Assembly (NCBI GenBank): GCA_003554965.1
Contig: PWHR01000046.1
Span: 56,149 to 120,148 of the forward strand
DNA: 64,000 nt
Reading direction: 5' to 3'
Origin: Thermoplasmata archaeon
GTDB lineage: Archaea > Thermoplasmatota > Thermoplasmata > Halarchaeoplasmatales > Halarchaeoplasmataceae
The notes below the pieces were generated by a model. It was given only the letters and a program-made list of their open reading frames with translations, was not told the DNA's origin and searched no databases. This document shows positions 6,899-43,059 of this stretch, piece by piece (the first letter of the stretch is position 1; each line of letters begins with the position of its first letter). The position numbers and the translations under genes are program-made.

Positions 6899-6969
6899 AA
6901 ACAAACTGAAGTTCTTCATTTATCAGCTGCTGTATTTACCTAATAATTTATACAGTAGATGACATCTTT

Positions 6970-9282: not shown

Positions 9283-9434
9283 ACGCTAAATCCGTGATTA
9301 GAATTCGGTTCAAGATCGATTGATTTTGATTCAAAAATGGAAAAAGACTAATAAACCGATTATTTTACTGATTTTTGAAAAAGAAGAAATAACAAATAGG
9401 ATAAACTATATGTAGAAATACAAGATTAAACCTG

Positions 9435-17089: not shown

Positions 17090-18532
17090 TTGGTTAAGAA
17101 AATGAATAGGGGATTAGATGAAAAAAATATGCCTTTACACCTTGATGAAACTTTAATAGCTAGTTTAAAAAATAAAAAAGGGGTGTGTTTAGTCGACGGA
17201 GAACACTATCCTCCCGTCACCAAAGCCACGCTCCAGGCTATTGAAAAAAAAGGCGTTGATATTTCTGCACTGATATTTTTAGGAGGAACTGAAAAGATCG
17301 AAGAACCTTTAGAGGAGTTAAAATTCGAAGATCTGGATGATGACCTTAAAATTTACTCAGGGGAAAATATCCTTGAAACGATAGAAAAAGTTCTGAACGA
17401 AAAAGAAGTAGACCTGGTCATCGATCTTTCGGATGAGCCTATTGTAACTTATGAAGACAGATTCCAGATAGCTTCTTCAGCTATGGATCAGGAAACCGGC
17501 TACCTAGGCTCAGATTTTATCTTAAGGCCACCAGTACAGGAAGAAATCCTAGAAAAGCCGAGTCTATCTATAATCGGCACAGGAAAAAGGATAGGAAAAA
17601 CAGGAGTGAGCGTATCTATAGCCCGGATATTGAAAAAGAAGGGTTATGATCCAGTTATAGTCTGCATGGGTCGTGGAGGACCGCAAGAGCCAGTTCTCAT
17701 CGATACGAGCGATAAGAAAGTCGATGCGGATACTCTTTTGGAGTTGTCTGAAAGCGGAAAACATGCAGCCTCAGACTACCTTGAAGATGCTCTACTCGCC
17801 GACGTTCCCACCATCGGATGCAGAAGATGTGGAGGAGGTCTGTCAGGCAATCCTTTTTCTTCAAATGTGTTGAAGGGAGCTGATATGACCAACGATCTTC
17901 CTCAACGATTCGTCATAATGGAAGGTTCTGGATCTACTTTACCACCGGTGAAAACTGATTCTAGGATAGTCCTTATCGGGGCAGCACAACCATTAGATCA
18001 TATCATCAAGTATTTCGGCCAGTACAGGATCAAAACTTCTGATCTGGCGGTGGTGACCATGTGTGAAGAACCTATGGCGGGGGAGGAGAAGTTAAACAAG
18101 ATCAAAGAGGGAATAAAAAATATCAAGCCAGAACTCGATTACCTCCTCACGAAATTCAGGCCAGAACCATCTGAGGATATCTCAGGTCAAAAGGTGTTTG
18201 TTGCTTCTACAGCCCCTGAAACGATATTGCCAACTATTGAGACATACCTCGAAAAGAATTTTCACTGCGACGTTGTTGGTTCTACCAACAATCTATCAAA
18301 TAGGAAAAAATTAAGAAGTGATCTAGAAGAGGGGATGAGATCTACTGATCTACTCCTGACTGAGATAAAAGCAGCTTCTATCGATATTGCTGGAAAGTAC
18401 GCTAAAGAAAGAGGTGTGGACATAAGCTTCATGCACAATGAGACCCTTGTCATAGAGGGGACAAAAAACAGTCTAGAAGAGGCGATAATCCCTTTATGCG
18501 AGAAAACCTTAAAGAAAGGTGATAAAAGATGA
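17090..18532 (+). CDS. cpgS: Cyclic 2,3-diphosphoglycerate synthetase-like protein (COG2403 family)
   Basis: 480 aa with a P-loop-like IGTGKRIGKTG. Length and organisation match cDPG synthetase. It is directly followed by, and overlaps, a 2-phosphoglycerate kinase-like gene, the pairing seen in Methanothermus. Confidence 0.5.
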   Translation: MVKKMNRGLDEKNMPLHLDETLIASLKNKKGVCLVDGEHYPPVTKATLQAIEKKGVDISALIFLGGTEKIEEPLEELKFEDLDDDLKIYSGENILETIEKVLNEKEVDLVIDLSDEPIVTYEDRFQIASSAMDQETGYLGSDFILRPPVQEEILEKPSLSIIGTGKRIGKTGVSVSIARILKKKGYDPVIVCMGRGGPQEPVLIDTSDKKVDADTLLELSESGKHAASDYLEDALLADVPTIGCRRCGGGLSGNPFSSNVLKGADMTNDLPQRFVIMEGSGSTLPPVKTDSRIVLIGAAQPLDHIIKYFGQYRIKTSDLAVVTMCEEPMAGEEKLNKIKEGIKNIKPELDYLLTKFRPEPSEDISGQKVFVASTAPETILPTIETYLEKNFHCDVVGSTNNLSNRKKLRSDLEEGMRSTDLLLTEIKAASIDIAGKYAKERGVDISFMHNETLVIEGTKNSLEEAIIPLCEKTLKKGDKR

Positions 18533-19407
18533 GGTGCGTGATTAAAGAAGGAAAACGATATCCCTTTTCTAAAGGTATACTAGCTAGCTCTCTAGAGATA
18601 ACGGGACTCTCCATCGATGAGACCTACGATATAGTAAAAGAGGTGGATAAAGACCTGAAAGATATAGATGAGATACCTTCAAAAGAGATAAAGGAAAGAG
18701 TTTGCGGGAAACTTTTAGACAGAGGACTGACTAAAGAAGAGAGATTTTACAGGGTAACAAGAAAACTTCGGTATCTGGAGAAACCACTTCTTTTAATGAT
18801 AGGAGGGGGAGCAGGAGTAGGGAAATCAACACTTTCTGCTGAGCTCGGGCATCGGTTGGACATAACAAGGATAATAGGCACCGACACTGTAAGGGAGATA
18901 ATGAGGACGATGGTATCCAAAGAATTAGTACCAACACTCTACGAATCTACTTTCAACACAGATAAAAAGGTGAAAGCCCCATTTGTCAAAAAACGTTTGA
19001 TATACGGTTTCGATCGGCAGGTCAGCGTGGTCAGTACTGGTGTTAAAGCCGTAATAGATAGAGGTGTGAAGGAAGGCCTTAATTCGATTGTTAACGGCGT
19101 CCACGTAGTTCCAGGCTACCTTGATATGGATAACCGTGAAGATTGTTTCGTTTTCCAATATGTTCTAGAGGTCGAAGATCTAGAAGAGCACGCAAAGAGA
19201 TTTGAGATGAGAGCTGAAGGAAGCCATAGAGATCCCGATAAATATATTGATAAGATGGAAAAGATAAGAGATATACAAGAATACATCATACAGCAGGGTG
19301 TAGAGAATGGAGCTAAGGTCTTGACGAATAAAAAGATGGAAAATACTATCAGGATGATAGTTGAAGATATAATAACAGAGTTGGAACCGGTGATAAAGGA
19401 TGGTTGA
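18529..19407 (+). CDS. 2-phosphoglycerate kinase-like protein (ATP-cone + P-loop kinase)
   Basis: 292 aa. N-terminal ATP-cone-like MRCVIKEGKRYPFSKGILASSL and Walker A GGGAGVGKST. Overlaps the upstream cpgS-like gene by 4 nt. Confidence 0.55.
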   Translation: MRCVIKEGKRYPFSKGILASSLEITGLSIDETYDIVKEVDKDLKDIDEIPSKEIKERVCGKLLDRGLTKEERFYRVTRKLRYLEKPLLLMIGGGAGVGKSTLSAELGHRLDITRIIGTDTVREIMRTMVSKELVPTLYESTFNTDKKVKAPFVKKRLIYGFDRQVSVVSTGVKAVIDRGVKEGLNSIVNGVHVVPGYLDMDNREDCFVFQYVLEVEDLEEHAKRFEMRAEGSHRDPDKYIDKMEKIRDIQEYIIQQGVENGAKVLTNKKMENTIRMIVEDIITELEPVIKDG

Positions 19408-23731: not shown

Positions 23732-23778
23732 AACAAGAAAAAGAAAGGGGTTTTTGATTTTGTGTTTGGTTAGCTATT
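23732..23778 (-). terminator. Conserved 3' element / oligo-U terminator downstream of giant gene 1
   Basis: In mRNA sense this reads AAUAGCUAACCAAACACAAAAUCAAAAACCCCUUUCUUUUUCUUGUU. It is nearly identical to the block after giant gene 2 and similar to the one after gene 3. Confidence 0.45.
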
Positions 23779-26700
23779 TTACTCTTCGAAGGATTCGGTT
23801 TCTCTAGTCTCTTCTTTCACTGGTTCATTTCCGCCTTTTTTCATCATCACCGCGAAGACTGCTATTATCACTGCAAGTATCGCTAAGACCATTCCGACTA
23901 TTCCTAGGTTTCTAGCCATATCTACATCGTCTTCAAGGTCTGAAATGTCGTCTTCGATATCTGCTATGTTTCCTTCGATGTCTTCTATTTCCGCTTCAAT
24001 GTCTTCAATGTCTCCTTCGATGTCTTCTATTTCCGCTTCAATGTCTTCTATGTTTCCTTCAATACCGTCTATGTCTCCCTCAATGTCGTCTATGTTTCCT
24101 TCAATGTCATCTATGTTTCCTTCAATGTCATCTATGTTTCCTTCAATGTGGTTTATGTCTCCTTCAATGTCGTCTATCTGGGCTTGGAGATCTGACTCAA
24201 CGTCATCTAATTCATCGTCTAAATCGTCTATCTGATTTTGAAGTTCTGTCTCAATGTCATCTAATTCATCAAACAAATCGTCTATCTGGGTTTGTAGACC
24301 TGTCTCAACGTCATTTAAGTCATCTCTCAAGTCATCTAGTTCATCATTCAATTCCTCTAGCTCAGGTAGATACAGTGCATAAACCGTAGCTTCTGCGACA
24401 ATCTCCTCATCATCCATAGCCTGAACTGTGAATACATTTTGTCCTTCTATGAGGTCAGTCTCGTATACGAATTCTCCGTTATCATCAACAGATACAGATG
24501 CATCGTTAACGTACACATCTAGATTTGGATCGGTCTCACCATGGATTGTGAACTCTTCATCATAGGTTAGACTTTCCACACCGTCTTCTGGACTAAATAT
24601 CTCTAGTTTTTCCTCTATAGTGGATACCTCAAAGACCCTAGTCTCAGTATATCTGTTCCCAGCTCCATCAGTAGCTCTGACCTGTACAACGTGAGTACCA
24701 TCCTCTAATCCAATAAAGGTGTAGTCTGTATCAGTTCCGATATCGTCCCAATCACCGTAGTTTATCCGTATCTCGTAATCGATGTCTCCTAGATATTCGT
24801 GTCCTTCCCATTCTACAGTCACCGTATCCTGCTCTATTATCACATAGTCCTCTTCTGGAGAGGTTATGTCAAAGGCTTCAACAGGTGGATTCACTATGAC
24901 TGATATCTTATCTGTATCAGTGTTACCCTCTTCATCGCTAACCTCGAGATATACATCGTAGGTTCCTTGGTATGGGAAGACGTAATCGACGATCTCTCCT
25001 TCAGTTGTATCATAGTATCCTTCCGCTTCACCAGAAATTCCTTCAATCGACCAGCTCCAATCTTCTACTCCGACATTATCCGTGGAACCAGATCCGTCTA
25101 GCTCATATTCGACTCCTACTCTTGTTTGATCAGATGTGCCTGCATCTGCTACCGGATCTTCAGTATCTATGGCATAGATTTCATCCCATGCTTCGGCGGA
25201 ATTACCATAAGCGTCAGTTACTGTTAGAGTTATGTCATAATAGAGAGCGTACTCCAAAGGCTTCTCTATCACTGGTTCGTAGAAATAGTATGTCTCGTCG
25301 TATGGATCGACGATCTCCCATGTGTAGTTTTCGATTCCTGCGTTATCGGATGGTGGGTTATACGATTCTGTTGCATTCAGTGTTATGGTGTCGCCCTGGT
25401 AGTAATCTGGTTCCTCTTCGATGTGGAATTCGGCATGCGGTTCCACATCATCTTCTAGATGGAATGACCAACCGTATCCTTCTGGTACTGCAGCTGGGTC
25501 ACTAGTATACTCTACTGCATTAGCGAACATCTGGTTCGCTTCTTCGGACCAACCCGGATCGTCGGCTTCTCCAAAGAATCCTATTCCCTTAGCTGGGAGC
25601 AGGACTTCATTCCTATCTTCACAGACGCCTACCGCTGGTCCTCCATATCCTCCACCGTAATCTTTCTCAGCGAGTATTTCTCCACTGTATTCATCGAACC
25701 ATGAACCCCAGTTAGTGGTTCCGTCGAACATCAACACTTCATCTCCTTCTTCTCCAATATCTTCGAATATCGGATGATCTTCGAGTATCTCTAGATATTG
25801 TGGTGGGTTCGTACCAGTTCCTTCAGAATCATGGTATCCAGGATCATCTCTTACGTTGTGTAGCTGAGTAACTCCGTCAGAATAACCTTCTTGACTAGCG
25901 CCAACATGTGTATCTAGATAGACAACTCCTTGTCCGTCTTGTAGATTGTCTAGGAAGTCTTCAGCAGCCGCTTCAGAGTCTGCCTCTGTATACTCATACC
26001 TCTGTATAACAAATGTATCATAATTGTCTATCTCATCTATAAGCCAATCGTCCCAGTGTTCGTTATCTTCGTTCCACAATGTTTCAACGTTGTATTCGTC
26101 GTCTGGTAAGTAGTCTTCCAGTTTATACTCGATCTCATATTCTTGCCAGTTGTCCGCATCGACTACTGCAACGTCAACTTCGTCGCCCATCAATTCTTCG
26201 TCAGTCGGCTCTTCATCGATCTCGTCACCAGTTACTGGGACTTCAACATAGGCTTCAAGACCCCAAGCACCAAGACCTGACTCCTCCCAGTTCGCTGGGT
26301 CATGAGGATCTTCCCAAGTGATCCATTGTCCTTCGTCGGGATAAGAAGTATCATCTATTCCAAATGGGAAATGACCATCGCCGGGATCATCTATGTGCAT
26401 TACTATCCAATACTCATCTTCCTCTATCATGACATCTTCGTCAAGTTCGAGTTCGACCCAACCTGCTCCTTCTGGGTTATATTCCTCTGTCTCTGTGAGC
26501 CATTCTCCTGGTGCTCCTCCATCATCTTCTGCTATGTAACCATAAGCCCAGTCGCCAAATTCACCAGTGTCATCGTCATAGTCATAATAAGCGACTTCTG
26601 AGATGTATCCTCCTATATCGTCTGATAGGTCCAATCTCATGGCACCGTACCAGTCAATTGGATCTGGTCCTACACCTCCGGCATTATCAGCTTCAAATCG

Positions 26701-29700
26701 ATGGTCTGCTTCGTATAACCAGCGCCATTCTCCTTCTAATTCACCAACATGTTCAAAGTTAGCTGTTATCTCTTTATCCGAATCCATAGTGACAGTTATC
26801 TCTTCTTCAGTACCTTCATAATCACCAGTCCATTCGGTAAATTGCCATTCAGCGTCCTCAGGTATCGCTTCAAGATCCACATCAGTACCTTCAATGTAGT
26901 TGTCCTCTTCTGGATCGATCTCAACTGTTCCTTGGCCAGCAACATCGACATCTAAAGTATACATACCTGGGTTTATACTACCCATGTTGTAATCTTCGTA
27001 TGTTACCATCACGTACCAGTGATTATCGTTAGCCATCCTTTCTTCTTCTAGTTCCCAAGTCGTCTCTAACCTCTGATCTTCAATGATCTCGAATGAATCG
27101 ATCAGTTGATCCCAGTTTCCGTCGTAGAATTCGACTTCAATATATTGGTCGGTCGGATTGGTCACATCAACAGATAGATCTTGTTCAAGACCTGTTACCC
27201 ATTCGTCATGTTCTGGTTCTGGTTCTGTAGCTTCAGGCAGTGGTAATTCATAGACCGAATCTTCATTCATCTCTCTATTACCTACTCTGTCAACTGCTCT
27301 CACAACATAATGCCACTGTTCTCCGTCATCCGCCATTCCTTCATCTACATAACTGTACTCTTCTGATCCATCGGCCTCGACTTCGGCTATAGGTTCGTCC
27401 CATGGACCGTCCTGGTCTTCAGCTCTGTAGACTTCATAATATTCAGTGTCATCGTAACCTGCACCATCATCTGGTGACGCATCCCAAGTCAACTCGTTTC
27501 CTGTAACTGCCCATGGATCTGCATCCCAATCCAGTTCTAAGTTTTCAACTTGTTCTGGAGGATCTGCGTTTATGTCTGCAGTATCATGAACGTATCTTCC
27601 TTCTGGTTCGTAGGTATGGAATTCCCATGTATCAGACTCGATGGTTGTGACTCCGTCGTAAACTTCTACATGCCATTCGAAGGTTGAATTCGTTTCTAAT
27701 AAAACAAACTGTGTAGCTGCTTCTTCTCCAGACATTACTTCTTCAACAGTTTCATTACCGATCTCATAGCCGTCTTCATCGTACAGGTAGAATGTTACAT
27801 CCATGTGGTAATCATTTGGATCGTTGACTGTCACATTCATCAGTGGGGAATGAGTCACATCTTCTTCACCATCATACGGGCTTGGATCAGATACTTCAGG
27901 ATCTTCATGTTCATCCACGAAGACTCGTTCACTAACCTCTACGTTCTCTAGATTATCATCTTCAGGATGATCAGTTACCATCGTTAGAATGTAATCGCTC
28001 GGTTCTTCAGTTTCGGGAGTCCAGTCATCGAACTGGACCTGTTCGTCCTGACCAACACTCAAGTTTTCCACTTCTTGTTCGTCGTAGTATTCTTCTTCGG
28101 TATATTCCGTGGTTATAGTTACATCATCGATTCCCCAGTACTCATCTTCTTCGACTTCTTCTGAATAAATCTCCCAACCTATCCAGACTTCGTCTTCTTC
28201 AGAAGCCCATTGAGTTATATCGTATTCTTGTTCGCCGTGAGTTATGTTCCTGCCTATCCTTTTATAGCTATCGCCTTCATCGGTCGAGATCAAGAGTGAT
28301 CTTTCGTTTTCGTCGTAATTTCCTTCAAATTCAGAGAAGAATTCCAGGATGACTCTGTGTTCACCGTCACTACAATCAGCCATCTCAGACCACAGTATAT
28401 CGTGTTCGTGGTCGTCTATCGGAGTTATCTCGACCTTCTCTTCCTCTTCGTTATATTCCCAAGTATTATCGTTTCCATCCCTATCTTCGGCTTCCCAACC
28501 ATTATCAAATGGATCATCTGAGAAGTCCTCATCAAGCGGGATGTCGTCAATTATCTGTTCGATGCTCATTTCGACAGGTCCTTCATCAATATCCTGGTTA
28601 CCGACGTTGGTGACTGTTCCAGTAACGTTTCTCTCCTGGAAGTCAAATATCGGTTCTTCTGGTTCATCTATGGAAGTAGCTTCAAGATCATAGACGATCG
28701 GGATCACTTCAGTGAACTGCTCTAGGGTGGCTGAATCAGGATCAGTTTCATCTTCATGTTTAGCTGTAATATTGAATACATATTCACCTGCATCGGAAGG
28801 TGTCCAATCCTCGAACTCTGCATTGATCGTCTCGTCTTCATCTATAGTGACCTCTATCTCGTCAGAATAATCTTCTTCTCTTTCGCCCAATATAACGTCG
28901 TTGACGAACCAGTCATCCAGTTCGATCGTCGAGCCATGATATTCAAAGATCACCTGGGTTTCAGGACCTATATGGTCTGTTAGATTAACCTCATAATGAT
29001 CGGGCGCAATGCTTCCATCAACTGGATTCTCCCACGGGGTCACATCCTGCCATGACTCATCAGGATCGGACCTAGCCTGCACTATCGCATCGAATTGGTC
29101 TGTGCTATGATCGATGTAAGAGAAGAATTCCAAAGTTAACTCATCAGCTTCGGTTGTGTCCACAGCAGGACTCTGTAGATACGAGTAATCATCGTCTCCA
29201 ACATCAAACCAATAGAGATTAGCCTCTGGTGGATTACCTCCTGCTTCGTTGGAATCAGACTGAGTCCAGTCATCTGTTTCCCAACCTTCAGGTGGGAAAC
29301 TACCAGAGAAATCTTCAACGAATCCTTCGACATGTTCAGCTTTAGCTTCAACCGGTACATCTTCAACCATGAAGTCGCCATAGTTAGTTATCTCGGCTTC
29401 AACGTCCTGGGTTTCTTCCCAGACTTCTGTTTCTGGAGAGATTATCTCATCTACACCTAGATTCGCTTCGGGTGCTCTGACCAATATTGTTTCCCTCACG
29501 TAATCGAGTTCATCATCTAATTCTGTGCTGACGTTTATCTCGTACTCACCGACTTCTTCTGGATCCCACTCTTCAAATTCGACCTCTTTTGTCTCCTGAG
29601 CATCTATGTCTATTGTTGTAGCGTCGTCATATTCGTCATCTAAGCTTGTAACCATTACTTCGTATATCTCCCAGCTATCAGGTGTAAATGGATCTCCTCC

Positions 29701-32700
29701 GTGGTCGTCAGTTTCGTAGAGGAATCCTATCTGAACGTTCTCTTCACCGTCTGCATATTCTGATATGTCATAATAGATTTCGCCAAAATCATCATCCGTA
29801 AAGTTGTCGATCTCTTCCCATGTATCTCCACCATCTGTCGTAATCGAGATTTCCCCGTAGGGGTCACCTTCAATTCCATCGTCGAAATCGTGATCGACAA
29901 CGAGTTCAGTTCCTTCTGCCTCGGAAGCATCGATTTCTGGTGAGATCAACCATTCTTCTTGGACTTCTCCGTCATCATCCTCTACCCTTGCCATGCCTTC
30001 GTCGTCAAAGTAATGCTCCCAAGTTTCATCGCTCGTATCATCTATCTCCCATTCATCAGGGATTTCATCATGGAAGTCTTCATCTAGCCAGTAAAGTACT
30101 TGTTCCATCTCTACATCTACAGGAACTTCCTCTTCGTCGAATGTTCCGTAGTTTTCTATTGCGGTTGTAACGTCATGAACCTCATCGATCATCACAGTAT
30201 CGCTCGGGGAAATAATCTCTGAAACTTCTACACCGTGGACATCTTCGACTATTATATCCTGCGTGGTTCCGAAACCTACTATTTCATCATCTAAGTCTTC
30301 CGTCGTGGACTCCATCAAATATTCTCCTTTTTCATCTGGGTTCCAGTCTTCGAAAACCGCAGTAGTTTCTTCACCGGCATCTACGTCTACTTCGATTTCA
30401 TCTTGATATACATCTTGAACATATTCTACAGTGACCTCTTCGATACTCCAATCACAGAATGTTGAATGATCGTCGTCGTCGCTGCTGTGCCATACAAAAG
30501 CAACATGAACTTCTTCTTCACCATCTGCGTAGTCTGATATATCATACTCATACTCACCGTCAGGATCATCGTCTCCATCCCATTCTTCTATAAGATCCCA
30601 TTCATCGCCACCGTCCGAACTGACCTGGACTTCGGCAGTGTATTCTGGATCGCCAAAGCTGGGGCTTAGATCATGATCGAATATCAGCGTAGTATGGGAA
30701 CCATCGCTTACATCGATCTCCGGACTTATCAACCACTCTTCCTGGATTTCGTCACGGGTAACATCGATATCTGCCGAACTCGTTCCATGATGCCAAGTTT
30801 CATCGCTCGTATCATCTATCTCCCAATCGTCAGGTATCTCATCATCGAAATCCTCGTGTAGTGCGGTAACAAATTCATTTATCGTAGTCTCTACGGGTAC
30901 GTCTTCGTGATCAGCATCTCCTAAATTTTCAACTAGTGTTTCAATAGCATGATCTTCTTCAGTATTCACTCTTTCAGGAGGTTCTAGTATTTCGCTCACT
31001 CCGACTACATCGTCAGGCATCTCTGTAAAGTATTCTACTGAATTTGCCAATAGGGTCCAAGCTTCGTCCGTCCAATCTGGATCGTCTGGTGGGGCAAAGT
31101 AATCTATACCCACTGCTGGGAGTAGGATCTCATTTCCATCTTCATCGATCCCTACACCTTGTCCTTCGTAGGTAGTATCGTCATTATGGTATATGACTTC
31201 AGCTAGATCGTCTCCGCTGTAATCTTCGTAATAAGAACCGTAGATGTTACTTCCGACGTACATGTCAACAACATCGTCTTCTTCACCTACTCCATCAAAT
31301 ATTTCATGATCTTCTTGTATATCAATCTGGACAGGCGGCCTTGTATCGAGACCTTCGGCCCAATGTTCTTCAGGGTCATCGCGCACATTATGGAGTCTTG
31401 TTACACCATCTGGATAGCCTTCGTCAGTAGCACCCTCGTCAGAGTCTAGATATATCGCTGCTTGATCATCTTCTAGTTCATCCAAGAAGTCTTCAGCTAG
31501 TGAATCGCTGCCGAACCTCCACGGTACGAACGCATCGTAGTTCTCCATCTCATCTATTAGTTCATCGGCCTCTAACGTATCAACGACATATGGTCCTACC
31601 AAGCGTTGTTCTAATTGGTAAGCGATCTCGCCTTCAAAATAGTCTATTTCATCGATCACAGCTATTTTCGGAATCTCTTCATGCGGCGTCTCTGTAAGCA
31701 AATCCTCGTTTTCACTATCCATGCCTTCTTCAAGATCATCAGGATGTCCTGGATCCGCATCCCAGTACTCTGCTTCTATCTCGCCAGCATGGTCGACTTG
31801 AAGAGTTCCTTCTTCATCTTCTTCACTTAATTGCACTTGACCCTCGAAAAATCCTAAGTTCTCTTCATCTTCTTCCAATTCTAACGTTTTAACCTCGATC
31901 TCTTCTCCATCTTCATCGTAACTTGTCACATTAACCTCGTGAGTTCCCTCTCCTTCAAGTATTATGTCGTTCAAAGTAACATTGACAAGATCTTCACCGG
32001 CATACTCGTCCTTCTCGATCTCAATCTCACCTTCTTTGTCAGGTACTTCTATATCAACAATGTCGTCAGGAACGTTCGAGGCACTCAAAGCATAATCCTG
32101 GTTCGCCTCTCCATCGTTGTTAGCGTCTTCAGGAACATTAGTTCCGTGAACTCTAACGGTATAAGAACCGCTCTCTAGTTCGTCAGGATGAATGAAAACG
32201 TTCTGAACGTTGTTCACATCATCCCAACCGTCTCCATCATAATCGAAATCATCCATGACATCTGTATTCGGATAACTGTAACCGCTATCACTAGTACCGT
32301 CACCAGTTTCATCGAAAGCATTACCTCTGTATATGTCGCCACCAGGAGATTCCACTTCAAGATCCAAATTGTTCTTCAGTGTTGGTGTCCCACCTGCACT
32401 ATCGCCTTCTTGAGCGTTTTTATCTGTATAAGAAAGCGTTACCTTCAATGGTTCATCCTCATCTGCAGGATTAAACTCGTATTCTTCAACTTCTCCTGTT
32501 TCTATCAAAGTCTCCTGATCTTCCAGTTGGAATCCCATCGGTTCTTCTTTTGGATATTCTAATTTTGATAGATTCGGAACGCCCCAACCTTCATCTCTGT
32601 TTGGCACGTGCCCATCTGAAGGTATATTTCCTCCAGTATTACCTACTTCAGGGTCTAGTTCCTCTGCAGTATTAACGAGGATAGATCTGACCATGGCGGG

Positions 32701-34536
32701 ACTCGGTTTTTCATCGTATCTTTCTTCATACCATTCTACGATGATGGTAGCAGCTCCCGCTACCAAAGGATTACCGAAAGAAGTTCCACTAGAGGCTACA
32801 TAACCTCCACCTTCTAATGGTGTGTTTTGGGAGATAACATCTTCAGAAGGAGCTATAACATCAGGCTGTATCCTATTGTCTTCTGTCCATCCACGAGAAC
32901 TCATTCCATACATATTTTCTGGATTTTCACGATTGAGTCCAGGATTGTATGGTTCGTTACCACCTATAGCGATGGTGTTTTTAGCGTTCGCAGGACTACC
33001 TATCTCCTGATCGTAATCTCCTCTACCTCCGTCATTACCTGCAGAGGTAGTTATCACCATCGGAACGTTTTCGTCCGTATCTCTATCAGCGTCTCTTACC
33101 GCTTGATCGAATATCTCATCAGAATCACTGTATTCTCCCATAGTTCCAGCGCCCCACGAATTCGTATGTATGTAAGCGTCAGAACGCTGAGCGGGTTCCT
33201 CTACGATCGGATAATATTCTGCAGGGATAAAGCCGCCCCCGTCGTCGAAGATCTTGGTACCGAAGAGTTCAGATTCATAGCCTAGTCCTTGTCCCATATA
33301 ATACTCCATATCACCATCTTCTGTTTCATCCCAGGTCTCACCTGTTCCTCTGTAAGTATCACCAGACACAAGTCCTGTACATTGTGTTCCATGACCCATT
33401 CCATCGGCCCAATCATCTTCTTGTTCAAATCCGTAACCATCGACAACTCTACCTGTAAAATCTTCAACACCTGCATCACCGACTGATCCATCTCCTATTC
33501 CTGAGTCAGCCACAGCGACAGTTACTCCTTCTCCACTGTAACCTAACTGATTGATGTAAGCTCCGTAATCACCGTGTTTTCTGTACGGCTCTTGCGGATC
33601 TCCTTCTCTCGGTGGAGGTGTCAGATCGTCTCGACGATCATATTCATCGTCCATGAACCATTGTCCACCACCGATCAGCTGGATATCCATCTCCGCATGA
33701 AGTTCTGGCTCCACATAAGGTGCGATGTAATAAACATCGTTCTCCAAGGCTAAATCTTCAACATCGTCCATAGATTCTATGTCGACAGTCACTCTAGAGC
33801 CATCTTCTCTAAGATCTTCTACACCCAAAACATCGGCTTCGGCTTCGATCATATTCAACGTAGAAGCATCAAATCCTGGCCTCAACCTTATGTTCAAAGG
33901 CATCTCCTTGTCAAGAGCCTCGTCTATCTCGCTGTGCATCTTGAATTCTGGTTGGTAGATACCGACCCAATCAACAAAATCAAAGTCCTCGACTTCTTCA
34001 GCCTGTTCGGGCGTCATTATAACTTCGTACGCATAGTTCGGCTGGTAATTGAACACATTTACTCCGATATCTTCTATTTGCTCTCGCCATTCAGGATTTA
34101 TCGGACCCATCATATCTACGATATAAAGTCCCTCAGTTTCTGAATCGTATCCCTCTATTTTCAACTCAGAGTTCAATTCTGGAAAACCTTCATTGGTATC
34201 AAACGTGTGACCTTTCACACTAATCTCATTTCTGTTCTCTAGAATCTGGGCATCTAACTCAGATTCTAGTTCCCGAGCTGTTCTTTCATCCGTCCTCATC
34301 AATACGTTTCGTCCGTAATGATCTAAAATTTCGCCTTCAAGGCTCAAATCTTCAACCATTTCAGGACTATCCGTATCGATTAGGACCACCGTTTCTACAT
34401 CTTCGATAGTTTCAAACAAACCTGTTCCATCTTGCTCAGCATCTCCAAAAACCATCATCCCAGGGACGACGGTTCCTACCACTAGTACAAAGGCTATCAC
34501 TAAAACAGATATTCCTCTTCTTGCTTTTCCTTCCAT
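23779..34536 (-). CDS. Giant secreted/membrane-anchored multidomain protein with subtilisin-like S8 peptidase domain (SPEARE-like surface protein)
   Basis: About 3585 aa. Start taken at MEGKARRG (RBS GAGGT 7 nt upstream; homologous to the start of the 43060..50931 gene); the ORF-track ATG is at 34560. Signal peptide present. S8 triad reads VADSGIGDG / HGTQCTG / GTSFGNPLVAGAA. P-domain-like region is followed by many acidic beta-sandwich (MAM/choice-of-anchor-J-like, CARDB-like), fn3 and PKD repeats. Ends in a heptad coiled coil, TM anchor and acidic tail ending FEE. Confidence 0.85.
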   Translation of the reverse strand: MEGKARRGISVLVIAFVLVVGTVVPGMMVFGDAEQDGTGLFETIEDVETVVLIDTDSPEMVEDLSLEGEILDHYGRNVLMRTDERTARELESELDAQILENRNEISVKGHTFDTNEGFPELNSELKIEGYDSETEGLYIVDMMGPINPEWREQIEDIGVNVFNYQPNYAYEVIMTPEQAEEVEDFDFVDWVGIYQPEFKMHSEIDEALDKEMPLNIRLRPGFDASTLNMIEAEADVLGVEDLREDGSRVTVDIESMDDVEDLALENDVYYIAPYVEPELHAEMDIQLIGGGQWFMDDEYDRRDDLTPPPREGDPQEPYRKHGDYGAYINQLGYSGEGVTVAVADSGIGDGSVGDAGVEDFTGRVVDGYGFEQEDDWADGMGHGTQCTGLVSGDTYRGTGETWDETEDGDMEYYMGQGLGYESELFGTKIFDDGGGFIPAEYYPIVEEPAQRSDAYIHTNSWGAGTMGEYSDSDEIFDQAVRDADRDTDENVPMVITTSAGNDGGRGDYDQEIGSPANAKNTIAIGGNEPYNPGLNRENPENMYGMSSRGWTEDNRIQPDVIAPSEDVISQNTPLEGGGYVASSGTSFGNPLVAGAATIIVEWYEERYDEKPSPAMVRSILVNTAEELDPEVGNTGGNIPSDGHVPNRDEGWGVPNLSKLEYPKEEPMGFQLEDQETLIETGEVEEYEFNPADEDEPLKVTLSYTDKNAQEGDSAGGTPTLKNNLDLEVESPGGDIYRGNAFDETGDGTSDSGYSYPNTDVMDDFDYDGDGWDDVNNVQNVFIHPDELESGSYTVRVHGTNVPEDANNDGEANQDYALSASNVPDDIVDIEVPDKEGEIEIEKDEYAGEDLVNVTLNDIILEGEGTHEVNVTSYDEDGEEIEVKTLELEEDEENLGFFEGQVQLSEEDEEGTLQVDHAGEIEAEYWDADPGHPDDLEEGMDSENEDLLTETPHEEIPKIAVIDEIDYFEGEIAYQLEQRLVGPYVVDTLEADELIDEMENYDAFVPWRFGSDSLAEDFLDELEDDQAAIYLDSDEGATDEGYPDGVTRLHNVRDDPEEHWAEGLDTRPPVQIDIQEDHEIFDGVGEEDDVVDMYVGSNIYGSYYEDYSGDDLAEVIYHNDDTTYEGQGVGIDEDGNEILLPAVGIDYFAPPDDPDWTDEAWTLLANSVEYFTEMPDDVVGVSEILEPPERVNTEEDHAIETLVENLGDADHEDVPVETTINEFVTALHEDFDDEIPDDWEIDDTSDETWHHGTSSADIDVTRDEIQEEWLISPEIDVSDGSHTTLIFDHDLSPSFGDPEYTAEVQVSSDGGDEWDLIEEWDGDDDPDGEYEYDISDYADGEEEVHVAFVWHSSDDDDHSTFCDWSIEEVTVEYVQDVYQDEIEVDVDAGEETTAVFEDWNPDEKGEYLMESTTEDLDDEIVGFGTTQDIIVEDVHGVEVSEIISPSDTVMIDEVHDVTTAIENYGTFDEEEVPVDVEMEQVLYWLDEDFHDEIPDEWEIDDTSDETWEHYFDDEGMARVEDDDGEVQEEWLISPEIDASEAEGTELVVDHDFDDGIEGDPYGEISITTDGGDTWEEIDNFTDDDFGEIYYDISEYADGEENVQIGFLYETDDHGGDPFTPDSWEIYEVMVTSLDDEYDDATTIDIDAQETKEVEFEEWDPEEVGEYEINVSTELDDELDYVRETILVRAPEANLGVDEIISPETEVWEETQDVEAEITNYGDFMVEDVPVEAKAEHVEGFVEDFSGSFPPEGWETDDWTQSDSNEAGGNPPEANLYWFDVGDDDYSYLQSPAVDTTEADELTLEFFSYIDHSTDQFDAIVQARSDPDESWQDVTPWENPVDGSIAPDHYEVNLTDHIGPETQVIFEYHGSTIELDDWFVNDVILGEREEDYSDEIEVTIDEDETINAEFEDWTPSDAGEYVFNITAKHEDETDPDSATLEQFTEVIPIVYDLEATSIDEPEEPIFDFQERNVTGTVTNVGNQDIDEGPVEMSIEQIIDDIPLDEDFSDDPFDNGWEAEDRDGNDNTWEYNEEEEKVEITPIDDHEHDILWSEMADCSDGEHRVILEFFSEFEGNYDENERSLLISTDEGDSYKRIGRNITHGEQEYDITQWASEEDEVWIGWEIYSEEVEEDEYWGIDDVTITTEYTEEEYYDEQEVENLSVGQDEQVQFDDWTPETEEPSDYILTMVTDHPEDDNLENVEVSERVFVDEHEDPEVSDPSPYDGEEDVTHSPLMNVTVNDPNDYHMDVTFYLYDEDGYEIGNETVEEVMSGEEAATQFVLLETNSTFEWHVEVYDGVTTIESDTWEFHTYEPEGRYVHDTADINADPPEQVENLELDWDADPWAVTGNELTWDASPDDGAGYDDTEYYEVYRAEDQDGPWDEPIAEVEADGSEEYSYVDEGMADDGEQWHYVVRAVDRVGNREMNEDSVYELPLPEATEPEPEHDEWVTGLEQDLSVDVTNPTDQYIEVEFYDGNWDQLIDSFEIIEDQRLETTWELEEERMANDNHWYVMVTYEDYNMGSINPGMYTLDVDVAGQGTVEIDPEEDNYIEGTDVDLEAIPEDAEWQFTEWTGDYEGTEEEITVTMDSDKEITANFEHVGELEGEWRWLYEADHRFEADNAGGVGPDPIDWYGAMRLDLSDDIGGYISEVAYYDYDDDTGEFGDWAYGYIAEDDGGAPGEWLTETEEYNPEGAGWVELELDEDVMIEEDEYWIVMHIDDPGDGHFPFGIDDTSYPDEGQWITWEDPHDPANWEESGLGAWGLEAYVEVPVTGDEIDEEPTDEELMGDEVDVAVVDADNWQEYEIEYKLEDYLPDDEYNVETLWNEDNEHWDDWLIDEIDNYDTFVIQRYEYTEADSEAAAEDFLDNLQDGQGVVYLDTHVGASQEGYSDGVTQLHNVRDDPGYHDSEGTGTNPPQYLEILEDHPIFEDIGEEGDEVLMFDGTTNWGSWFDEYSGEILAEKDYGGGYGGPAVGVCEDRNEVLLPAKGIGFFGEADDPGWSEEANQMFANAVEYTSDPAAVPEGYGWSFHLEDDVEPHAEFHIEEEPDYYQGDTITLNATESYNPPSDNAGIENYTWEIVDPYDETYYFYEPVIEKPLEYALYYDITLTVTDAYGNSAEAWDEIYAIDTEDPVADAGTSDQTRVGVEYELDGSGSTDNVGVEDWSWSIEGISGEAEGYYDTTEGEIVDYVFPYQGTYDVYLEVSDEEGNTDTDKISVIVNPPVEAFDITSPEEDYVIIEQDTVTVEWEGHEYLGDIDYEIRINYGDWDDIGTDTDYTFIGLEDGTHVVQVRATDGAGNRYTETRVFEVSTIEEKLEIFSPEDGVESLTYDEEFTIHGETDPNLDVYVNDASVSVDDNGEFVYETDLIEGQNVFTVQAMDDEEIVAEATVYALYLPELEELNDELDDLRDDLNDVETGLQTQIDDLFDELDDIETELQNQIDDLDDELDDVESDLQAQIDDIEGDINHIEGNIDDIEGNIDDIEGNIDDIEGDIDGIEGNIEDIEAEIEDIEGDIEDIEAEIEDIEGNIADIEDDISDLEDDVDMARNLGIVGMVLAILAVIIAVFAVMMKKGGNEPVKEETRETESFEE
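23950..24330 (-). repeat. Coding tandem repeats (21-nt heptad units DIEGNID..., then about 54-nt units) forming the coiled-coil stalk of giant protein 1
   Basis: Repeated gtttccttcaatgtcatctat-type 21-mers and longer LQxQIDDLxDELDD units are visible in the DNA. Confidence 0.8.
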
Positions 34537-34742
34537 ACTTAATACCTCTACCACTAGCACTGTCTACATTCATCTTTAGAGGATTAATAAATCTCACTAC
34601 GACATGTCGACGATTCGAGGGGAAAAAGGATATAAGAGCTTTTGCTATAGAGATATATCACATGTATTTACACCGAATTATAGTAATTTATTTTCATAAC
34701 GGGAGTAACTTCTTTATAACCCTTAAACCTACTTGTATCTAA

Positions 34743-37700
34743 ATGAAGTTAAATACAGGTAGGTCTAGAATTTTGGTCCATCTTTGGGCACAAAAGAAAT
34801 CTATTGGGTATGATGAACATAAGGAGGTTCCTTTTAGTTTATGCCAGAAAGGTATTTCTGAGTCTGTAGATCTCTCAAGAAATCGAACTAGTGAGATCAT
34901 AAGGGATCTGGTCGAAAAGGGTTTAGTTGAAGAGTCAGTACGACGGGTTGTAGGATTGAAAAGGCGTAGAAAGGTCTATTCTTTAACGGAAAAGGGGATG
35001 AAAAGAGCTAAAGAGATACGAGATGAATTAAAAGATAGAGAAGTGAAAGTCAAGACGGATTCCTCGACATATGAGGTTAAATTAGAAGAGATCGATTCTT
35101 ATCTAGATTCTAGAGAACCTTTTTTGGTAGCGTTAAATAATCTAGACGAGAAAGACACGCTCGACCTTACTGAGCCTGAAAAAAAGAAGGAAGATGTTTT
35201 TGTGGGAAGAGAAGAAGAGATAGCAAGCCTTTCAAGTGGATTAGAAAAAGCAAAAAACGGCGAGGCTTCAGTTTATATGATAAGGGGGAAAGCCGGTATA
35301 GGTAAGACTAGACTAGTAAATGAATTCAAAAACCATGCCCTTTCTAACGGATTTGATTTCATAGCTGGAAAAGGCTATTACTACAGTTCAGAACCTTACC
35401 TTCCTTTCAAAGAAGCATTTAAGAAATTTCAGGACGAGGAAAACGTCGACTACCCTCTTGAATTTCCAGAAGGTTCGAGTAAAACAAATAAGATTCCATC
35501 TGAAAAAGAATTACAAGATAAAAACTACAGCGATGTTATATTCTCCGAGACAATAAAAAATATAAAAAAAATAGTAAAGAAAAGACCATTATTGATATTC
35601 ATTGATGATCTTCAATGGGTCGATAAAGCATCTCTTATTCTATTCCATTATATAGCTGATAAATTGAACGATCAAAAGATGATGTTGATCGGGTCGTATC
35701 GTCCTGAGGATGTTGTAGAAAATGATTTTCTCAGAGAGATACTACAGAGAATGAACAGGGAAGACCTTTACGATGAGATTTCCCTTGAACCGCTCACATG
35801 GGAAGATACTCGAGAAATAATAAAAAGTTTGATCGGGAAGTACGTGATACCAGAAGATTTTGCGAAAATAATACACGAAACTTCGGAAGGCAATCCTCTA
35901 TTTTCCAAAGAACTCGTAAAACAGATGCTCGATGACGGTACTTTAGATCCAAAAAACAAAGTCTTCCCCTCGAAAAAGAATGGTTTTGAATTACCGAAAG
36001 TCATTGACGAGATAATAGAAAGAAGGATAAAGAGATTGAATAAGGAGAACCTAAAAGTACTGCAGATCGGGAGTATTATAGGTGAGGATATTCCCTTTGC
36101 TTTACTCCACAAAGTCAGTGATCTTGAGTCCTTTGAACTATTAGAATACACTGATATACTGACGGGGTCTGGAATTTGGGATTATGATGCCGAGGATGAT
36201 CTATTTCATTTCGCTCACGGTCTTATTTACCTTTCCATATATCAATCCATTCCCAAGCATATCAAAAAAATTCTTCACGGAGAAGTGGCTGAAGCCATGG
36301 AAAAGATCTTCGAGGATGATCTAAAAAGTCACTATCATGAGATCGGTAAGCATTACAAGGTCTCAAGTAATTATTCTAAGGCTATGCAATATTTTGAAAA
36401 GGCAGGTGAGAATGCTAGAAATTTGTACGCCTATCAGGACGCCATAGAGATTTTCGAAAAGGCCTTTGATTTAGCTGAAAAAACGAATTCGCATGAAAAA
36501 ATTGGGAAGATATCATTAAAGCTAGGGGATCTTTATAGCATTATTGGAAAGTATGAAAAGAGTTTAGATTATTATGAAATGGTTCCCTTGGATGAGTTAG
36601 AAACCGATCAGGAGGCTCGTAAATTTTACAGGAAGAAAGCTAAATTATTCGATAGGATGGGTCGGTTGAAGGAAGCGATAAAATTAACAGATAAAGGCCT
36701 TGAAATAGGTAACGAAGAAAATATGGAGACCGCTAAACTTTTAAATCGAAAAGGTTGGGCTCAAATGAGAATCGGTTACCATTCTTCAGCAAAAGAAAAC
36801 TTTTTGAAGGCTTTGAAAATCAGCAAAAACCAAGGAGAGGAAAATGAATTTGGAGACATGTATCATGCCCTCGGTTCGATCTATATCCATGATGCAGAAT
36901 ATGATGAAGCTTTGAAATATTTGAAAAAGGGTTTAGAGGTAAGAGATAAGAATGATGATAAAGAGGGTAAAGCCTCCTCACTCGCTAACATAGGGAACGT
37001 ATACTTAAAAAAGGGTGAGATCTATAAAGCCTTGGATAAATTCAATCAGAGCCTAGAAATTTTAAGAGAAATTGGGAAAAAAGACCAACTATTCAAAATC
37101 CTTACTAATATTGGAAACGCCAGGCTTAAAAAAGGAGAACTGGAAAAAGCATATGAATGCTATAAAGAATCTCAGGAGATAATTGAAGAGCTTGATGATG
37201 TCAGAGGCTTAAACATTTCACTAACCAATTTAGGAAATTATCATATATTAAAAGGAGATTTTGATAAAGCTCTTGAATATCATAAAAAGAGTCTTGAGAT
37301 GAGTCAAGAGAAAGACCTTAAAAATGGGATCGCATTAGGGCATAATAATCTGGGTATAATTTATACTCATAAAGAAGATTATGATAATGCAAAAAGTAAT
37401 TTCTTCAAAAGTATAGAAATTTGCGAGGAAACAGAAAACTATCATCTCCTTGTCCATCCACTAGTTGGATTAGCTCATATATTCAATCATGAGAAAAAAT
37501 TCGAAAAAGCGTTGGAGAAAGCAGAAAGAGCTCTTGAAATTTCAAAAAACATCGGAGCCAAGATAGAAGAAGGTATAAGTAATAAAGCTCTGGGGATCGT
37601 TCACCGGGATATTGGAAACTTTGATGAGGCAAAAATTAGGTTTGAGAAAGGAAAGGAGATGCTTTCCGAATCGGGAGAAAGTAAAGAAATGGGTAAGCTA

Positions 37701-37841
37701 CTTTTCGAAGAAGCACTATTAGCAAAGAAAATAGACGATGGAAAAAAACACGATGAACTTTTGAAGAAAGCTAAATCCTTGTTTGAAGAGCGGGATATGA
37801 AATATTGGATAGAGAAATGTGAAAAAGAAATTGAAAGTTAA
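34743..37841 (+). CDS. STAND-type regulator: N-terminal winged HTH + AAA(AAA_16-like) ATPase + C-terminal TPR array
   Basis: 1032 aa. wHTH in the first ~100 aa. FVGREEEIASL...MIRGKAGIGKTRL (Walker A) and LLIFIDDLQWVD (Walker B). At least 10 TPR-like repeats in the C-terminal 450 aa. Confidence 0.75.
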   Translation: MKLNTGRSRILVHLWAQKKSIGYDEHKEVPFSLCQKGISESVDLSRNRTSEIIRDLVEKGLVEESVRRVVGLKRRRKVYSLTEKGMKRAKEIRDELKDREVKVKTDSSTYEVKLEEIDSYLDSREPFLVALNNLDEKDTLDLTEPEKKKEDVFVGREEEIASLSSGLEKAKNGEASVYMIRGKAGIGKTRLVNEFKNHALSNGFDFIAGKGYYYSSEPYLPFKEAFKKFQDEENVDYPLEFPEGSSKTNKIPSEKELQDKNYSDVIFSETIKNIKKIVKKRPLLIFIDDLQWVDKASLILFHYIADKLNDQKMMLIGSYRPEDVVENDFLREILQRMNREDLYDEISLEPLTWEDTREIIKSLIGKYVIPEDFAKIIHETSEGNPLFSKELVKQMLDDGTLDPKNKVFPSKKNGFELPKVIDEIIERRIKRLNKENLKVLQIGSIIGEDIPFALLHKVSDLESFELLEYTDILTGSGIWDYDAEDDLFHFAHGLIYLSIYQSIPKHIKKILHGEVAEAMEKIFEDDLKSHYHEIGKHYKVSSNYSKAMQYFEKAGENARNLYAYQDAIEIFEKAFDLAEKTNSHEKIGKISLKLGDLYSIIGKYEKSLDYYEMVPLDELETDQEARKFYRKKAKLFDRMGRLKEAIKLTDKGLEIGNEENMETAKLLNRKGWAQMRIGYHSSAKENFLKALKISKNQGEENEFGDMYHALGSIYIHDAEYDEALKYLKKGLEVRDKNDDKEGKASSLANIGNVYLKKGEIYKALDKFNQSLEILREIGKKDQLFKILTNIGNARLKKGELEKAYECYKESQEIIEELDDVRGLNISLTNLGNYHILKGDFDKALEYHKKSLEMSQEKDLKNGIALGHNNLGIIYTHKEDYDNAKSNFFKSIEICEETENYHLLVHPLVGLAHIFNHEKKFEKALEKAERALEISKNIGAKIEEGISNKALGIVHRDIGNFDEAKIRFEKGKEMLSESGESKEMGKLLFEEALLAKKIDDGKKHDELLKKAKSLFEERDMKYWIEKCEKEIES

Positions 37842-43008: not shown

Positions 43009-43059
43009 AACAAGAAAAAGAAAGAGGTTTTTGATTGTTTATGTGTTTACTTGGCTGTT
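43009..43059 (-). terminator. Conserved 3' element / oligo-U terminator downstream of giant gene 3 (diverged copy)
   Basis: aaaaaaaacaagaaaaagaaagaggtttttgattgtttatgtgtttacttggctgtttt is related to the other two 3' blocks. Confidence 0.4.

Follow-up and report, generated by a model that had tools for sequence, protein, structure and literature searches.

Three surface proteins with a common C-terminal module

The window studied here, i.e. the whole stretch of 64 000 nucleotides from a Thermoplasmata archaeon (assembly GCA_003554965.1, contig PWHR01000046.1, positions 56,149 to 120,148 of the forward strand), encodes three giant surface proteins, named G1, G2 and G3 in the following, and the subject of this work is the C-terminal module that they share. 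In window coordinates the genes are:

23779..34560, minus strand: G1, 3593-aa surface protein with Sec-type signal peptide, Peptidase_S8, Ig-like/PKD/Glucodextran_B domains and the C-terminal module
37948..42807, minus strand: G2, 1619-aa surface protein with Peptidase_S8, Ig-like domains and the module at the C-terminal end
43060..50931, minus strand: G3, 2623-aa surface protein with Peptidase_S8, MAM-like, Ig-like, PQQ beta-propeller and Glucodextran_B domains and the module

A Sec-type signal peptide was found at the N-terminus of all three proteins, and in each of them Peptidase_S8 is followed by Ig-like, PKD, Glucodextran_B or PQQ-propeller domains. Translation of the minus strand gave the C-terminal ends DIEDDISDLEDDVDMARNLGIVGMVLAILAVIIAVFAVMMKKGGNEPVKEETRETESFEE for G1, DDVDMARNLGIVGMILAILAVIIAIFTVVMKKQDKSEPEEEEMFEEKDETVTFEE for G2 and EDDIDMARNLGIVGIVLAILAVIIAVFAVMQKKGGSEPVEEEMVGESEETDFFEE for G3, each directly followed by the stop codon. 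This confirmed the ending described in an earlier sequence-only reading of the window (heptad stalk, MARNLGIVG, transmembrane (TM) helix, KK and an acidic tail ending in FEE): each protein runs from an acidic heptad stalk through DD[VI]D-MARNLGIVG and a 20-residue hydrophobic segment into KK and an acidic tail, with SFEE, TFEE or FFEE as the final residues. Two details of the description needed adjustment, since the neck is not DDVD throughout (DDID in G3), and the tails, previously given as 20–40 residues, are 20, 25 and 24 residues long including KK in G1, G2 and G3, respectively, at the low end of that range. PGF is absent from the three endings, as had been stated. In the six-frame translation of the window, MARNLGIVG occurred exactly three times, each time at the end of one of these genes.

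With residues numbered from the Met of MARN as position 0, the parts of the module are located as follows:

23956..24366, minus strand: G1 stalk, 18-residue repeats and then 11 heptads (DIEGNID type) with Ile at both core positions; predicted single helix
23920..23955, minus strand: G1 acidic neck EDDISDLEDDVD, family consensus Q(-6)-DDD-I(-2)-x
23842..23919, minus strand: G1 motif and membrane helix MARNLGIVGMVLAILAVIIAVFAVMM, with A1, G5, G8, A12, A15, A19 and A22 on one heptad stripe
23782..23841, minus strand: G1 putative cytoplasmic tail KKGGNEPVKEETRETESFEE, basic stop-transfer pair and acidic tail with 1 F-acidic motif; modelled as disordered
38140..38571, minus strand: G2 stalk, 54-nt (18-residue) repeats x3.7 at 98% identity, then 21-nt heptads x7.4
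38026..38139, minus strand: G2 neck EDDISDLEDDVD and MARNLGIVGMILAILAVIIAIFTVVM
37951..38025, minus strand: G2 tail KKQDKSEPEEEEMFEEKDETVTFEE, 2 F-acidic motifs
43249..43596, minus strand: G3 stalk, 75-nt and 21-nt repeats
43135..43248, minus strand: G3 neck EDVEEDQEDDID and MARNLGIVGIVLAILAVIIAVFAVMQ
43063..43134, minus strand: G3 tail KKGGSEPVEEEMVGESEETDFFEE

The stalk DNA consists of true tandem arrays, in which 21-nt (heptad) units lie nearest to the membrane (x11 in G1, x7.4 in G2), and the outer units of 54 or 75 nt correspond to 18 and 25 residues, i.e. heptad plus hendecad. The 54-nt repeats of the G2 stalk (38325..38526, minus strand) have a mutual identity of 98%, which points to a very recent expansion, and stalk length is probably evolving fast. 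At the other end of the proteins, the signal peptides of G1 (34440..34560, minus strand) and G3 (50830..50931, minus strand) are nearly identical (ISVLVIAFVLVVGTV[VI]PGMMV), with protein bodies ~30% identical. The ends of the G1 and G3 genes thus behave as conserved cassettes flanking variable middles.

Distribution of the module and its host lineage

An exhaustive HMMER search without word index, in which a profile built from the C-terminal ~60 residues was compared with 1.84 billion representative proteins, resulted in 22 matches at E≤1e-3 and nine at E≤1e-10, nearly all of them at the extreme C-terminus of proteins 360–3500 residues long. One of the family entries, P0001, is identical to G3. 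A word-index protein search with the 70-residue module returned 138 candidates, none of them significant, though the window proteins are in the collection; the word index is evidently unsuited to short, low-complexity queries. The metagenome collection of the Joint Genome Institute (JGI) was scanned at the DNA level with a degenerate pattern for MARNLGI[VI]G, and the 31 places found comprised 18 true module loci and 13 chance MAS/F matches without a helix. All 18 true loci were from hypersaline soda-lake sediment assemblies (SL_5KL, SL_8KL, Ga0207421). Further copies came from NCBI, ENA and Logan records, mostly of untraced origin.

After pooling and de-duplication, 36 distinct sequences of neck, helix and tail were obtained, i.e. 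the three of the window and 33 others, so that the module extends well beyond the three paralogs and the proposal of a distinct, conserved non-PGF C-terminal element was borne out. All 36 copies have the Q(-6)/I(-2) type of neck, small residues at positions 1, 5, 8, 12, 15, 19 and 22, and a Lys cluster, and are C-terminal after a coiled coil. The ectodomains which carry the module are unrelated: S8 subtilases, NosD/right-handed Beta_helix proteins, PQQ propellers with InlB B-repeats, CARDB and Ig-only proteins. Metagenome-assembled genome B1Sed10_34 alone has at least three copies, some of them divergent. The module was absent from Pfam and NCBIfam (six variants scanned at E≤10, none above cut-off), no relative was found among solved structures in the PDB, and a literature search for the motif string found no paper containing MARNLGIVG. 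A contig scan with a 350-residue alignment (acidic patterns of D[LQ]EDD[VI]DM type) added two distant Thermoplasmatota loci (L002 and L003), which serve as negative controls, having a coiled coil and a membrane helix without the motif, the stripe of small residues or the Phe-containing tail.

The setting had been taken as haloarchaeal, and this did not hold. Topoisomerase I of the window is 93% identical to an NCBI/Logan protein and ~80% identical to proteins of 'Candidatus Natronoplasma sp.' and 'Thermoplasmatota archaeon', and Ca. Natronoplasma is placed in Ca. Halarchaeoplasmatales, class Thermoplasmata. Family member P0004 is located on PULU01000026, a record that Vavourakis et al. 2018 list in their supplement under the name 'Thermoplasmata archaeon B1Sed10_34' (KTK 4A group, 41% GC). 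In the same paper the KTK 4A archaea are described as fermentative heterotrophs which are abundant in salt-saturated soda-lake sediment and have rnf genes, and genes for RnfC and RnfD are present in the window. On the basis of the topoisomerase, the placement of P0004 in B1Sed10_34 and the rnf genes, the host belongs to the halophilic Thermoplasmata (KTK 4A / Ca. Halarchaeoplasmatales) and is no haloarchaeon. These organisms are among the most abundant archaea of salt-saturated soda-lake sediments (PMC6146748). They are thought to be fermentative polymer degraders, of which none has been cultured. G2 is also recorded on contig SL_8KL_010_SEDDRAFT_10000350 of JGI metagenome 3300000557, and exact-protein look-ups of the window enolase and of P0002 returned no record.

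Duplication within the genome and conservation across genomes

The bodies of G1, G2 and G3 are 20–30% identical, when their last ~60 residues are 72–77% identical. Between the G1 and G2 genes, DNA identity is 93% over neck and TM segment and 92% over the 76 nt past the stop codon, and only ~50% in stalk, tail and farther downstream. Duplication or gene conversion hence contributes to the likeness inside this genome, and the three window copies alone are insufficient as proof of a functional motif. On this basis the module could be regarded as an ordinary single-pass anchor, with the likeness due to gene-converted recent paralogs and the acidic tail to the acidic proteome of a salt-in halophile, and the near-identical signal peptides of G1 and G3, as well as the stalk repeats of up to 98% identity, which imply active recombination, agree with such an origin.

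However, the same peptide is specified by scrambled synonymous codons in several genomes. Among 22 distinct DNA versions of MARNLGIVG, each variable residue used two to six synonymous codons with the peptide constant (Ala 4, Arg 4 with both AGR and CGR, Asn 2, Leu 6, Gly 3, Ile 3, Val 3, Gly 3), and Ile replaced Val at motif position 8 in one version, in a sample biased by the DNA pattern, which demanded MARNLGI[VI]G. In the pattern-free HMM search the motif was likewise near-invariant. This codon variation points to selection on the peptide, and conservation across other genomes shows that the likeness exceeds recent duplication. Moreover, single-pass anchors elsewhere in the same contigs have neither motif, stripe nor Phe-acidic tail, and the tails are 45% Glu, far above general composition, with a Phe context ~8-fold over shuffles. 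Gene conversion as the sole explanation is already contradicted by the family-wide copies, the codon data and the tail enrichment, and is extremely unlikely.

Neck, stripe of small residues and predicted continuous helix

Small residues (A, G, S or C) were found in 97% of the copies at position 1, in 100% at positions 5, 8, 12 and 15, in 85% at position 19 and in 79% at position 22, and each of the remaining positions 4–23 was at least 74% Ile, Leu, Val, Met or Phe. The spacing of this stripe is 4-3-4-3-4-3, with a sharp power-spectrum peak at period 3.5, and it extends upstream into the neck, where I/V(-2) is conserved in 100% and Q(-6) in 85%. In G1 and G2 the core Ile and Leu residues of the preceding >70 residues all fall on the same stripe in perfect heptad register. 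Many members have a short acidic linker (EEQEEIDEDQDDDIS), which makes one stutter between stalk and neck.

Proline was present in one of the 36 copies, at position -1, and DD[VI]D-MARNLGIVG itself is without Pro or PGF. An AlphaFold2 model of the last 350 residues of G1 placed beta-sandwich domains before an unbroken helix (fragment residues 156–326) that spans stalk, neck and membrane segment, with pLDDT (predicted local distance difference test score) >90 in the stalk and a disordered tail with pLDDT <50. The core Ile and Leu residues together with the in-register Gly/Ala stripe suggest a parallel homo-oligomer, either trimer or tetramer, in which the helices would associate through the stripe. 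With the stripe at heptad positions a and d, D(-3) would occupy position g and R(+2) position e, and could thus form an interhelical g-e' salt bridge; such pairing five residues apart is the canonical interhelical salt bridge of parallel coiled coils.

Predicted cytoplasmic tail and its Phe motif

The acidic tail had been placed in the cytoplasm, and the predicted topology agrees, with a Sec-type signal at the N-terminus and a K or KK cluster directly after the helix. Tails of the family are 6–80 residues long, contain 45% Glu and reach a net charge of -47. An invariant FEE ending, as proposed from the window, is limited to the window paralogs and one G2 ortholog (L025); elsewhere the tails end in EEEL, EEDF, DEEY or EEEF, and the feature common to the family is instead an internal, repeated motif EEE[LMI]F[EDG]EE, present in zero to six copies per tail.

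The pattern [MLIVFSTP]F[EDG][ED] was observed 70 times in the tails, against 8.5±2.7 (maximum 18) in composition-preserving shuffles, and [MLIV]F 57 times against 8.2 in shuffled tails. Computed over the 88 tail Phe residues, positions -4 to -2 are Glu or Asp in 82–86%, position -1 is Leu, Met or Ile in 64%, position +1 is Glu, Asp or Gly in 89%, and position +2 is Glu in 94%. The motif is kept in divergent paralogs (P0017 on another B1Sed10_34 contig, P0018 of untraced source, and the gene at the start of L004, also B1Sed10_34), and was not found in other single-pass anchors of the same contigs. Because the motif is repeated, position-specific and seen in this module alone, the most likely reading of the array, held with modest confidence, is multivalent docking of a cytoplasmic partner.

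Sorting signal, shedding site or permanent anchor

The order of signature, hydrophobic helix and basic cluster resembles three-part sorting signals, and a novel archaeosortase- or exosortase-type signal, along the lines of the sequence-only reading, would have an enzyme cleave at MARNLGIVG and join the ectodomain to a lipid or other acceptor, with helix and tail discarded. A motif near-invariant across genomes and its presence on many unrelated surface proteins of one lineage are likewise as in sorting signals. In the scan of the six module variants against NCBIfam and Pfam (E≤10), however, no curated CTERM model reached its cut-off, the best scores being 10 bits for GG_III-CTERM (cut-off 22) and 11.8 bits for NPXTG (cut-off 23.5). 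There is no Pro or other helix breaker, the helix is predicted to be continuous with the stalk, and the conserved residues form a 3.5-residue stripe, unlike a linear recognition site. The tails reach 80 residues with a conserved repeat, when known signals end in a few basic residues.

In addition, ordinary PGF-like signals are present in the same contigs and served as controls. Giant oligopeptide-binding (SBP_bac_5) proteins of 1100–1500 aa with the C-terminal end ...EEEDVPGFTLALLILAAVVAVAIYYKKKQ, composed of VPGF, a TM helix and YYKK[KE]Q, were found there (L008 16653..20840, L012 6699..11156, L020 2299..5655). One of the three passed Heimdall-CTERM (24.3 against a cut-off of 24) and Loki-CTERM (22.1 against 19.9), and the other two were just below the cut-offs. 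The archaeosortase-type signal of halophilic Thermoplasmata thus matches models named for Asgard archaea. These VPGF-TM-YYKKKQ controls indicate that the lineage has an ordinary archaeosortase-type signal and that the module is a second kind of C-terminus. A co-occurring archaeosortase or rhomboid gene had been suggested as a check, and neither sortase-like nor rhomboid-like genes were seen in the Pfam lists of ~260 kb of contig context. A sorting signal is therefore quite unlikely, and of the earlier interpretation the conserved anchor with a cytoplasmic acidic tail was upheld, when the PGF-like sorting function was not.

Cleavage could also serve release. As a shedding site, the element would be cut by a rhomboid or other intramembrane protease, or by the protein's own S8 domain at the neck, freeing the enzymes into the sediment and leaving the tail as a stub. 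The small, helix-destabilising residues G5 and G8 in the outer half of the helix and the extracellular proteases adjoining peptide-uptake genes speak for this, and tetrabrachion is proteolytically processed (PMC5744192). Nevertheless, the small residues continue in heptad spacing through the whole helix (A12–A22), which is a better fit to packing, non-protease ectodomains bear the same module, a leftover stub would not explain the conserved tail motif, and, as noted, no rhomboid gene was seen in the contig contexts. We consider shedding unlikely.

The explanation preferred here, with a probability of roughly 60%, is that the module is a modular, oligomerising type-I stalk anchor with a disordered acidic tail acting as cytoplasmic docking array. 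It looks like a permanent anchor of the SlaB/tetrabrachion kind and no sortase-type sorting signal, because the helical periodicity continues that of the stalk in register, a helix breaker is absent, and the long tail has its own conserved motif. What the analysis shows directly is that the element is conserved, periodic and modular, that its helix is predicted to be continuous, that the tail motif is enriched, and that known sorting signals are not matched in the scanned models.

After export by Sec, the ectodomain (protease, beta-helix, propeller or similar) would be held off the cell by a parallel alpha-helical coiled coil, the same helix passing unbroken through the acidic neck (Q-DDD-I-x-M-A-R-N) into the membrane. 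Its core positions there would be the Gly and Ala residues A1, G5, G8, A12, A15, A/G19 and A22, which would let two to four helices pack tightly as a transmembrane bundle, with the Lys cluster setting the orientation. The C-terminal 6–80 residues would be retained in the mature protein and would form a disordered polyglutamate tail on the cytoplasmic side, with zero to six hydrophobic-Phe motifs (EEE-[LMI]-F-[EDG]-EE) presented for multivalent docking of a partner, and in a salt-in cytoplasm the hydrophobic dipeptides may be the sole sticky points on a highly solvated tail. A more specific proposal is that the tails are read by a machine of the cytoplasm, with a role in the cytoskeleton, positioning, signalling or quality control, which would thereby cluster, position or regulate trimeric stalked enzymes from inside the cell; we regard this as rather unlikely.

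Several observations weigh against the stalk-anchor explanation. The profile and the DNA pattern were derived from the window, which biases the family limits towards look-alikes. A subclass of members (P0002, P0005, L015, L032) has a short non-acidic tail (KKKGG...PTLSKKSE) with no Phe motif, and the tail of P0007 is acidic and also lacks the motif, so that an anchor of this kind can do without the tail function. In ~260 kb of context no gene for a partner was found. The linker stutter in many members makes the register imperfect outside the G1/G2-type cases, co-variation of D(-3) and R(+2) is mixed, and divergent paralogs have other residues in place of R2 and N3, which are the most striking ones. 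The AlphaFold2 model of G1 is a prediction of the monomer. Finally, substrates of intramembrane proteases, too, typically have Gly and Ala in the outer half of their membrane helix.

Comparison with known systems

The module proteins have the architecture of the SlaB/tetrabrachion class, i.e. Sec signal, beta-rich ectodomains, long coiled coil and a single C-terminal helix. SlaB, the surface-layer (S-layer) anchor of Sulfolobales, consists of beta-sandwich domains, a coiled coil of ~100 residues and a C-terminal TM helix, and forms trimers, the stalk of which holds an extracellular assembly off the membrane (PMC6911244). Both have a Sec signal peptide, beta-sandwich domains, a coiled coil and a single membrane helix at the C-terminus. 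Real sequence homology is lacking, in that the SlaB model NF040788 was matched weakly, in its C-terminal part, by the stalk and TM segment of G2 (E 8e-5, 21.7 bits against a cut-off of 700), over coiled coil and TM only. SlaB is, besides, one S-layer subunit from a different phylum, whereas the module is a cassette on many different enzymes, and to our knowledge SlaB has no conserved neck motif, Gly/Ala heptad stripe or long acidic tail with Phe motifs.

Tetrabrachion of Staphylothermus marinus is a coiled-coil stalk carrying a subtilisin-family protease and has been linked to peptide fermentation (PMC5744192). Protease on a stalk is the point of likeness with this system and its protease STABLE, and module genes in related loci adjoin peptide-uptake operons. 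The long coiled coil of tetrabrachion has non-heptad (11-residue-type) repeats, and the window stalks mix heptads with 18- and 25-residue repeats. The tetrabrachion stalk is anchored at its C-terminal end, and we know of no cytoplasmic tail motif in it. Unlike in the proteins described here, where the protease is in the same polypeptide, STABLE is a separate, stalk-bound protein, and no sequence relationship is shown.

With the PGF-, Loki- and Heimdall-CTERM signals the module shares the character of a lineage-wide C-terminal element with signature, hydrophobic helix and basic residues, but those signals have a Pro-Gly-Phe-type signature and a non-helical linker and end within a few basic residues, all of which the module lacks. 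Tail motifs of eukaryotic type-I membrane proteins include acidic-Phe, W-acidic and FFAT-like motifs and EEVD/EEY-type C-termini. The likeness to these is in the disordered acidic tail with repeated aromatics flanked by Asp or Glu, and in several members of the family the last residue of the tail is hydrophobic and preceded by an acidic run (EEEL, EEDF, DEEY, EEEF); this is an analogy only, and we know of no homologous reader domain for such tail motifs in archaea.

Four features are new relative to these systems: a conserved neck, a heptad stripe of Gly and Ala, a single cassette shared by many enzymes, and a Phe-acidic array in the cytoplasm. The module is confined to a narrow uncultured lineage.

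Gene neighbourhood

Between G1 (divergent, 183-bp spacer) and G2 (convergent) is the gene for a 1032-aa protein (34743..37841, plus strand) with a winged helix (sub-threshold matches), AAA_16/ATPase_2 (STAND) and TPR_12. Three further STAND-TPR paralogs, 33–44% identical, were found beside module genes (L005 3752..6922; L006/L039, in L006 at 6790..9873; L029 8659..11421), and an ortholog lies beside the G2 ortholog (L025 1645..2583). TPR domains grip comparable peptides in other systems, i.e. W-acidic motifs in kinesin light chain and EEVD in Hop and CHIP, and the recurrent neighbours could accordingly bind the tail by gripping its acidic-Phe peptides, and thus couple the surface proteins to an NTPase switch. 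Against such a role, the N-terminal winged-helix region (sub-threshold) and the mostly divergent orientation relative to the giants are the usual layout of regulator and target, the partner giants P0002, P0005 and P0007 lack the Phe-acidic motif, and loci of other genomes (L004, L008, L012, L020, L023) are without such a neighbour in the flank covered. On these three grounds the TPR protein was downgraded as tail reader, a role we consider very unlikely. From the DNA-binding N-terminus, the divergent arrangement and the three motif-less partner giants, the STAND-TPR proteins are probably dedicated regulators of module genes and no tail readers.

L008 (10001..25136), L012 and L020 have a conserved gene order, in which the module S8 protease is followed by a TM-anchored PQQ propeller, the giant PGF-like binding protein, OppB, OppC and ATPases; this fits surface proteolysis feeding peptide uptake. 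A gene for a CheY-like receiver of 150–164 aa was found directly 3′ of a giant PQQ+S8 module gene at five loci in at least two sub-lineages (L005 16254..16730; L015 5756..6211; L021 1345..1794; L023 6325..6816; L029 8062..8514), and none follows the window giants. When a recurrent small membrane-protein neighbour was sought in the ~260 kb of context, only antisense shadow open reading frames were obtained.

Terminator-like elements follow the three window genes:

23735..23755, minus strand: element AAAAACCCCTTTCTTTTTCTT, 26 nt past the G1 stop codon
37904..37924, minus strand: element after G2
43012..43032, minus strand: variant AAAAACCTCTTTCTTTTTCTT after G3, coordinates derived by hand from the downstream sequence

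The A(4-7)C(2-4)T-rich element (AAAAACCCCTTTCTTTTT) was present 7–60 nt past the stop codon in 20 of 22 module genes, and there were only nine other copies in 264 kb, both strands included. It is also found in the window at 5941..5965 (plus strand) and at many other loci. The AAAACCC-TTTCTTTT 3′ flank was considered as a part of the cassette and rejected, as copies are likewise located behind the gene of the PGF-like binding protein and behind the end of the Opp operon. Its occurrence beyond module genes makes it an element of the lineage, and it resembles a terminator that is specific to this lineage and serves strongly expressed units.

Other genes of the window

At 17090..19407 (plus strand), a 292-aa protein scored 291 bits on the 2-phosphoglycerate kinase model (cut-off 343), and just upstream, with a 4-base overlap, a 480-aa P-loop protein had no Pfam or NCBIfam match. 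The latter presumably resembles cyclic 2,3-diphosphoglycerate (cDPG) synthetase, and if this is right, it would suggest a cDPG-type solute in halophilic Thermoplasmata. A 1467-aa Glu/Lys-rich, apparently all-helical protein with C-terminal Cys-rich zinc-ribbon-like motifs is encoded at 9435..13838 (plus strand). Beside an ABC-2 transporter, a 412-aa protein (57483..58721, plus strand) has faint CARDB/Ig-like matches and a plain TM anchor (…ILIGIALATFIVGIGVGLLYERKIKREK), i.e. an ordinary anchor without the module.

Significance

The cassette suggests how halophilic Thermoplasmata may mount extracellular enzymes, i.e. on one interchangeable stalk-and-anchor unit. Since the module is absent from Pfam and NCBIfam, a profile would improve the annotation of these genomes, and would be a simple marker for the surface proteome of the lineage. 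The in-register Gly/Ala stripe offers a clean natural model of a soluble coiled coil continuing into a membrane bundle. A repeated Phe-acidic cytoplasmic motif is unusual for prokaryotic surface proteins and provides a concrete peptide for partner fishing; if the tails are read by a cytoplasmic machine, the array would be a prokaryotic counterpart of eukaryotic type-I tail motifs, evolved for a multimolar-K+ cytoplasm.

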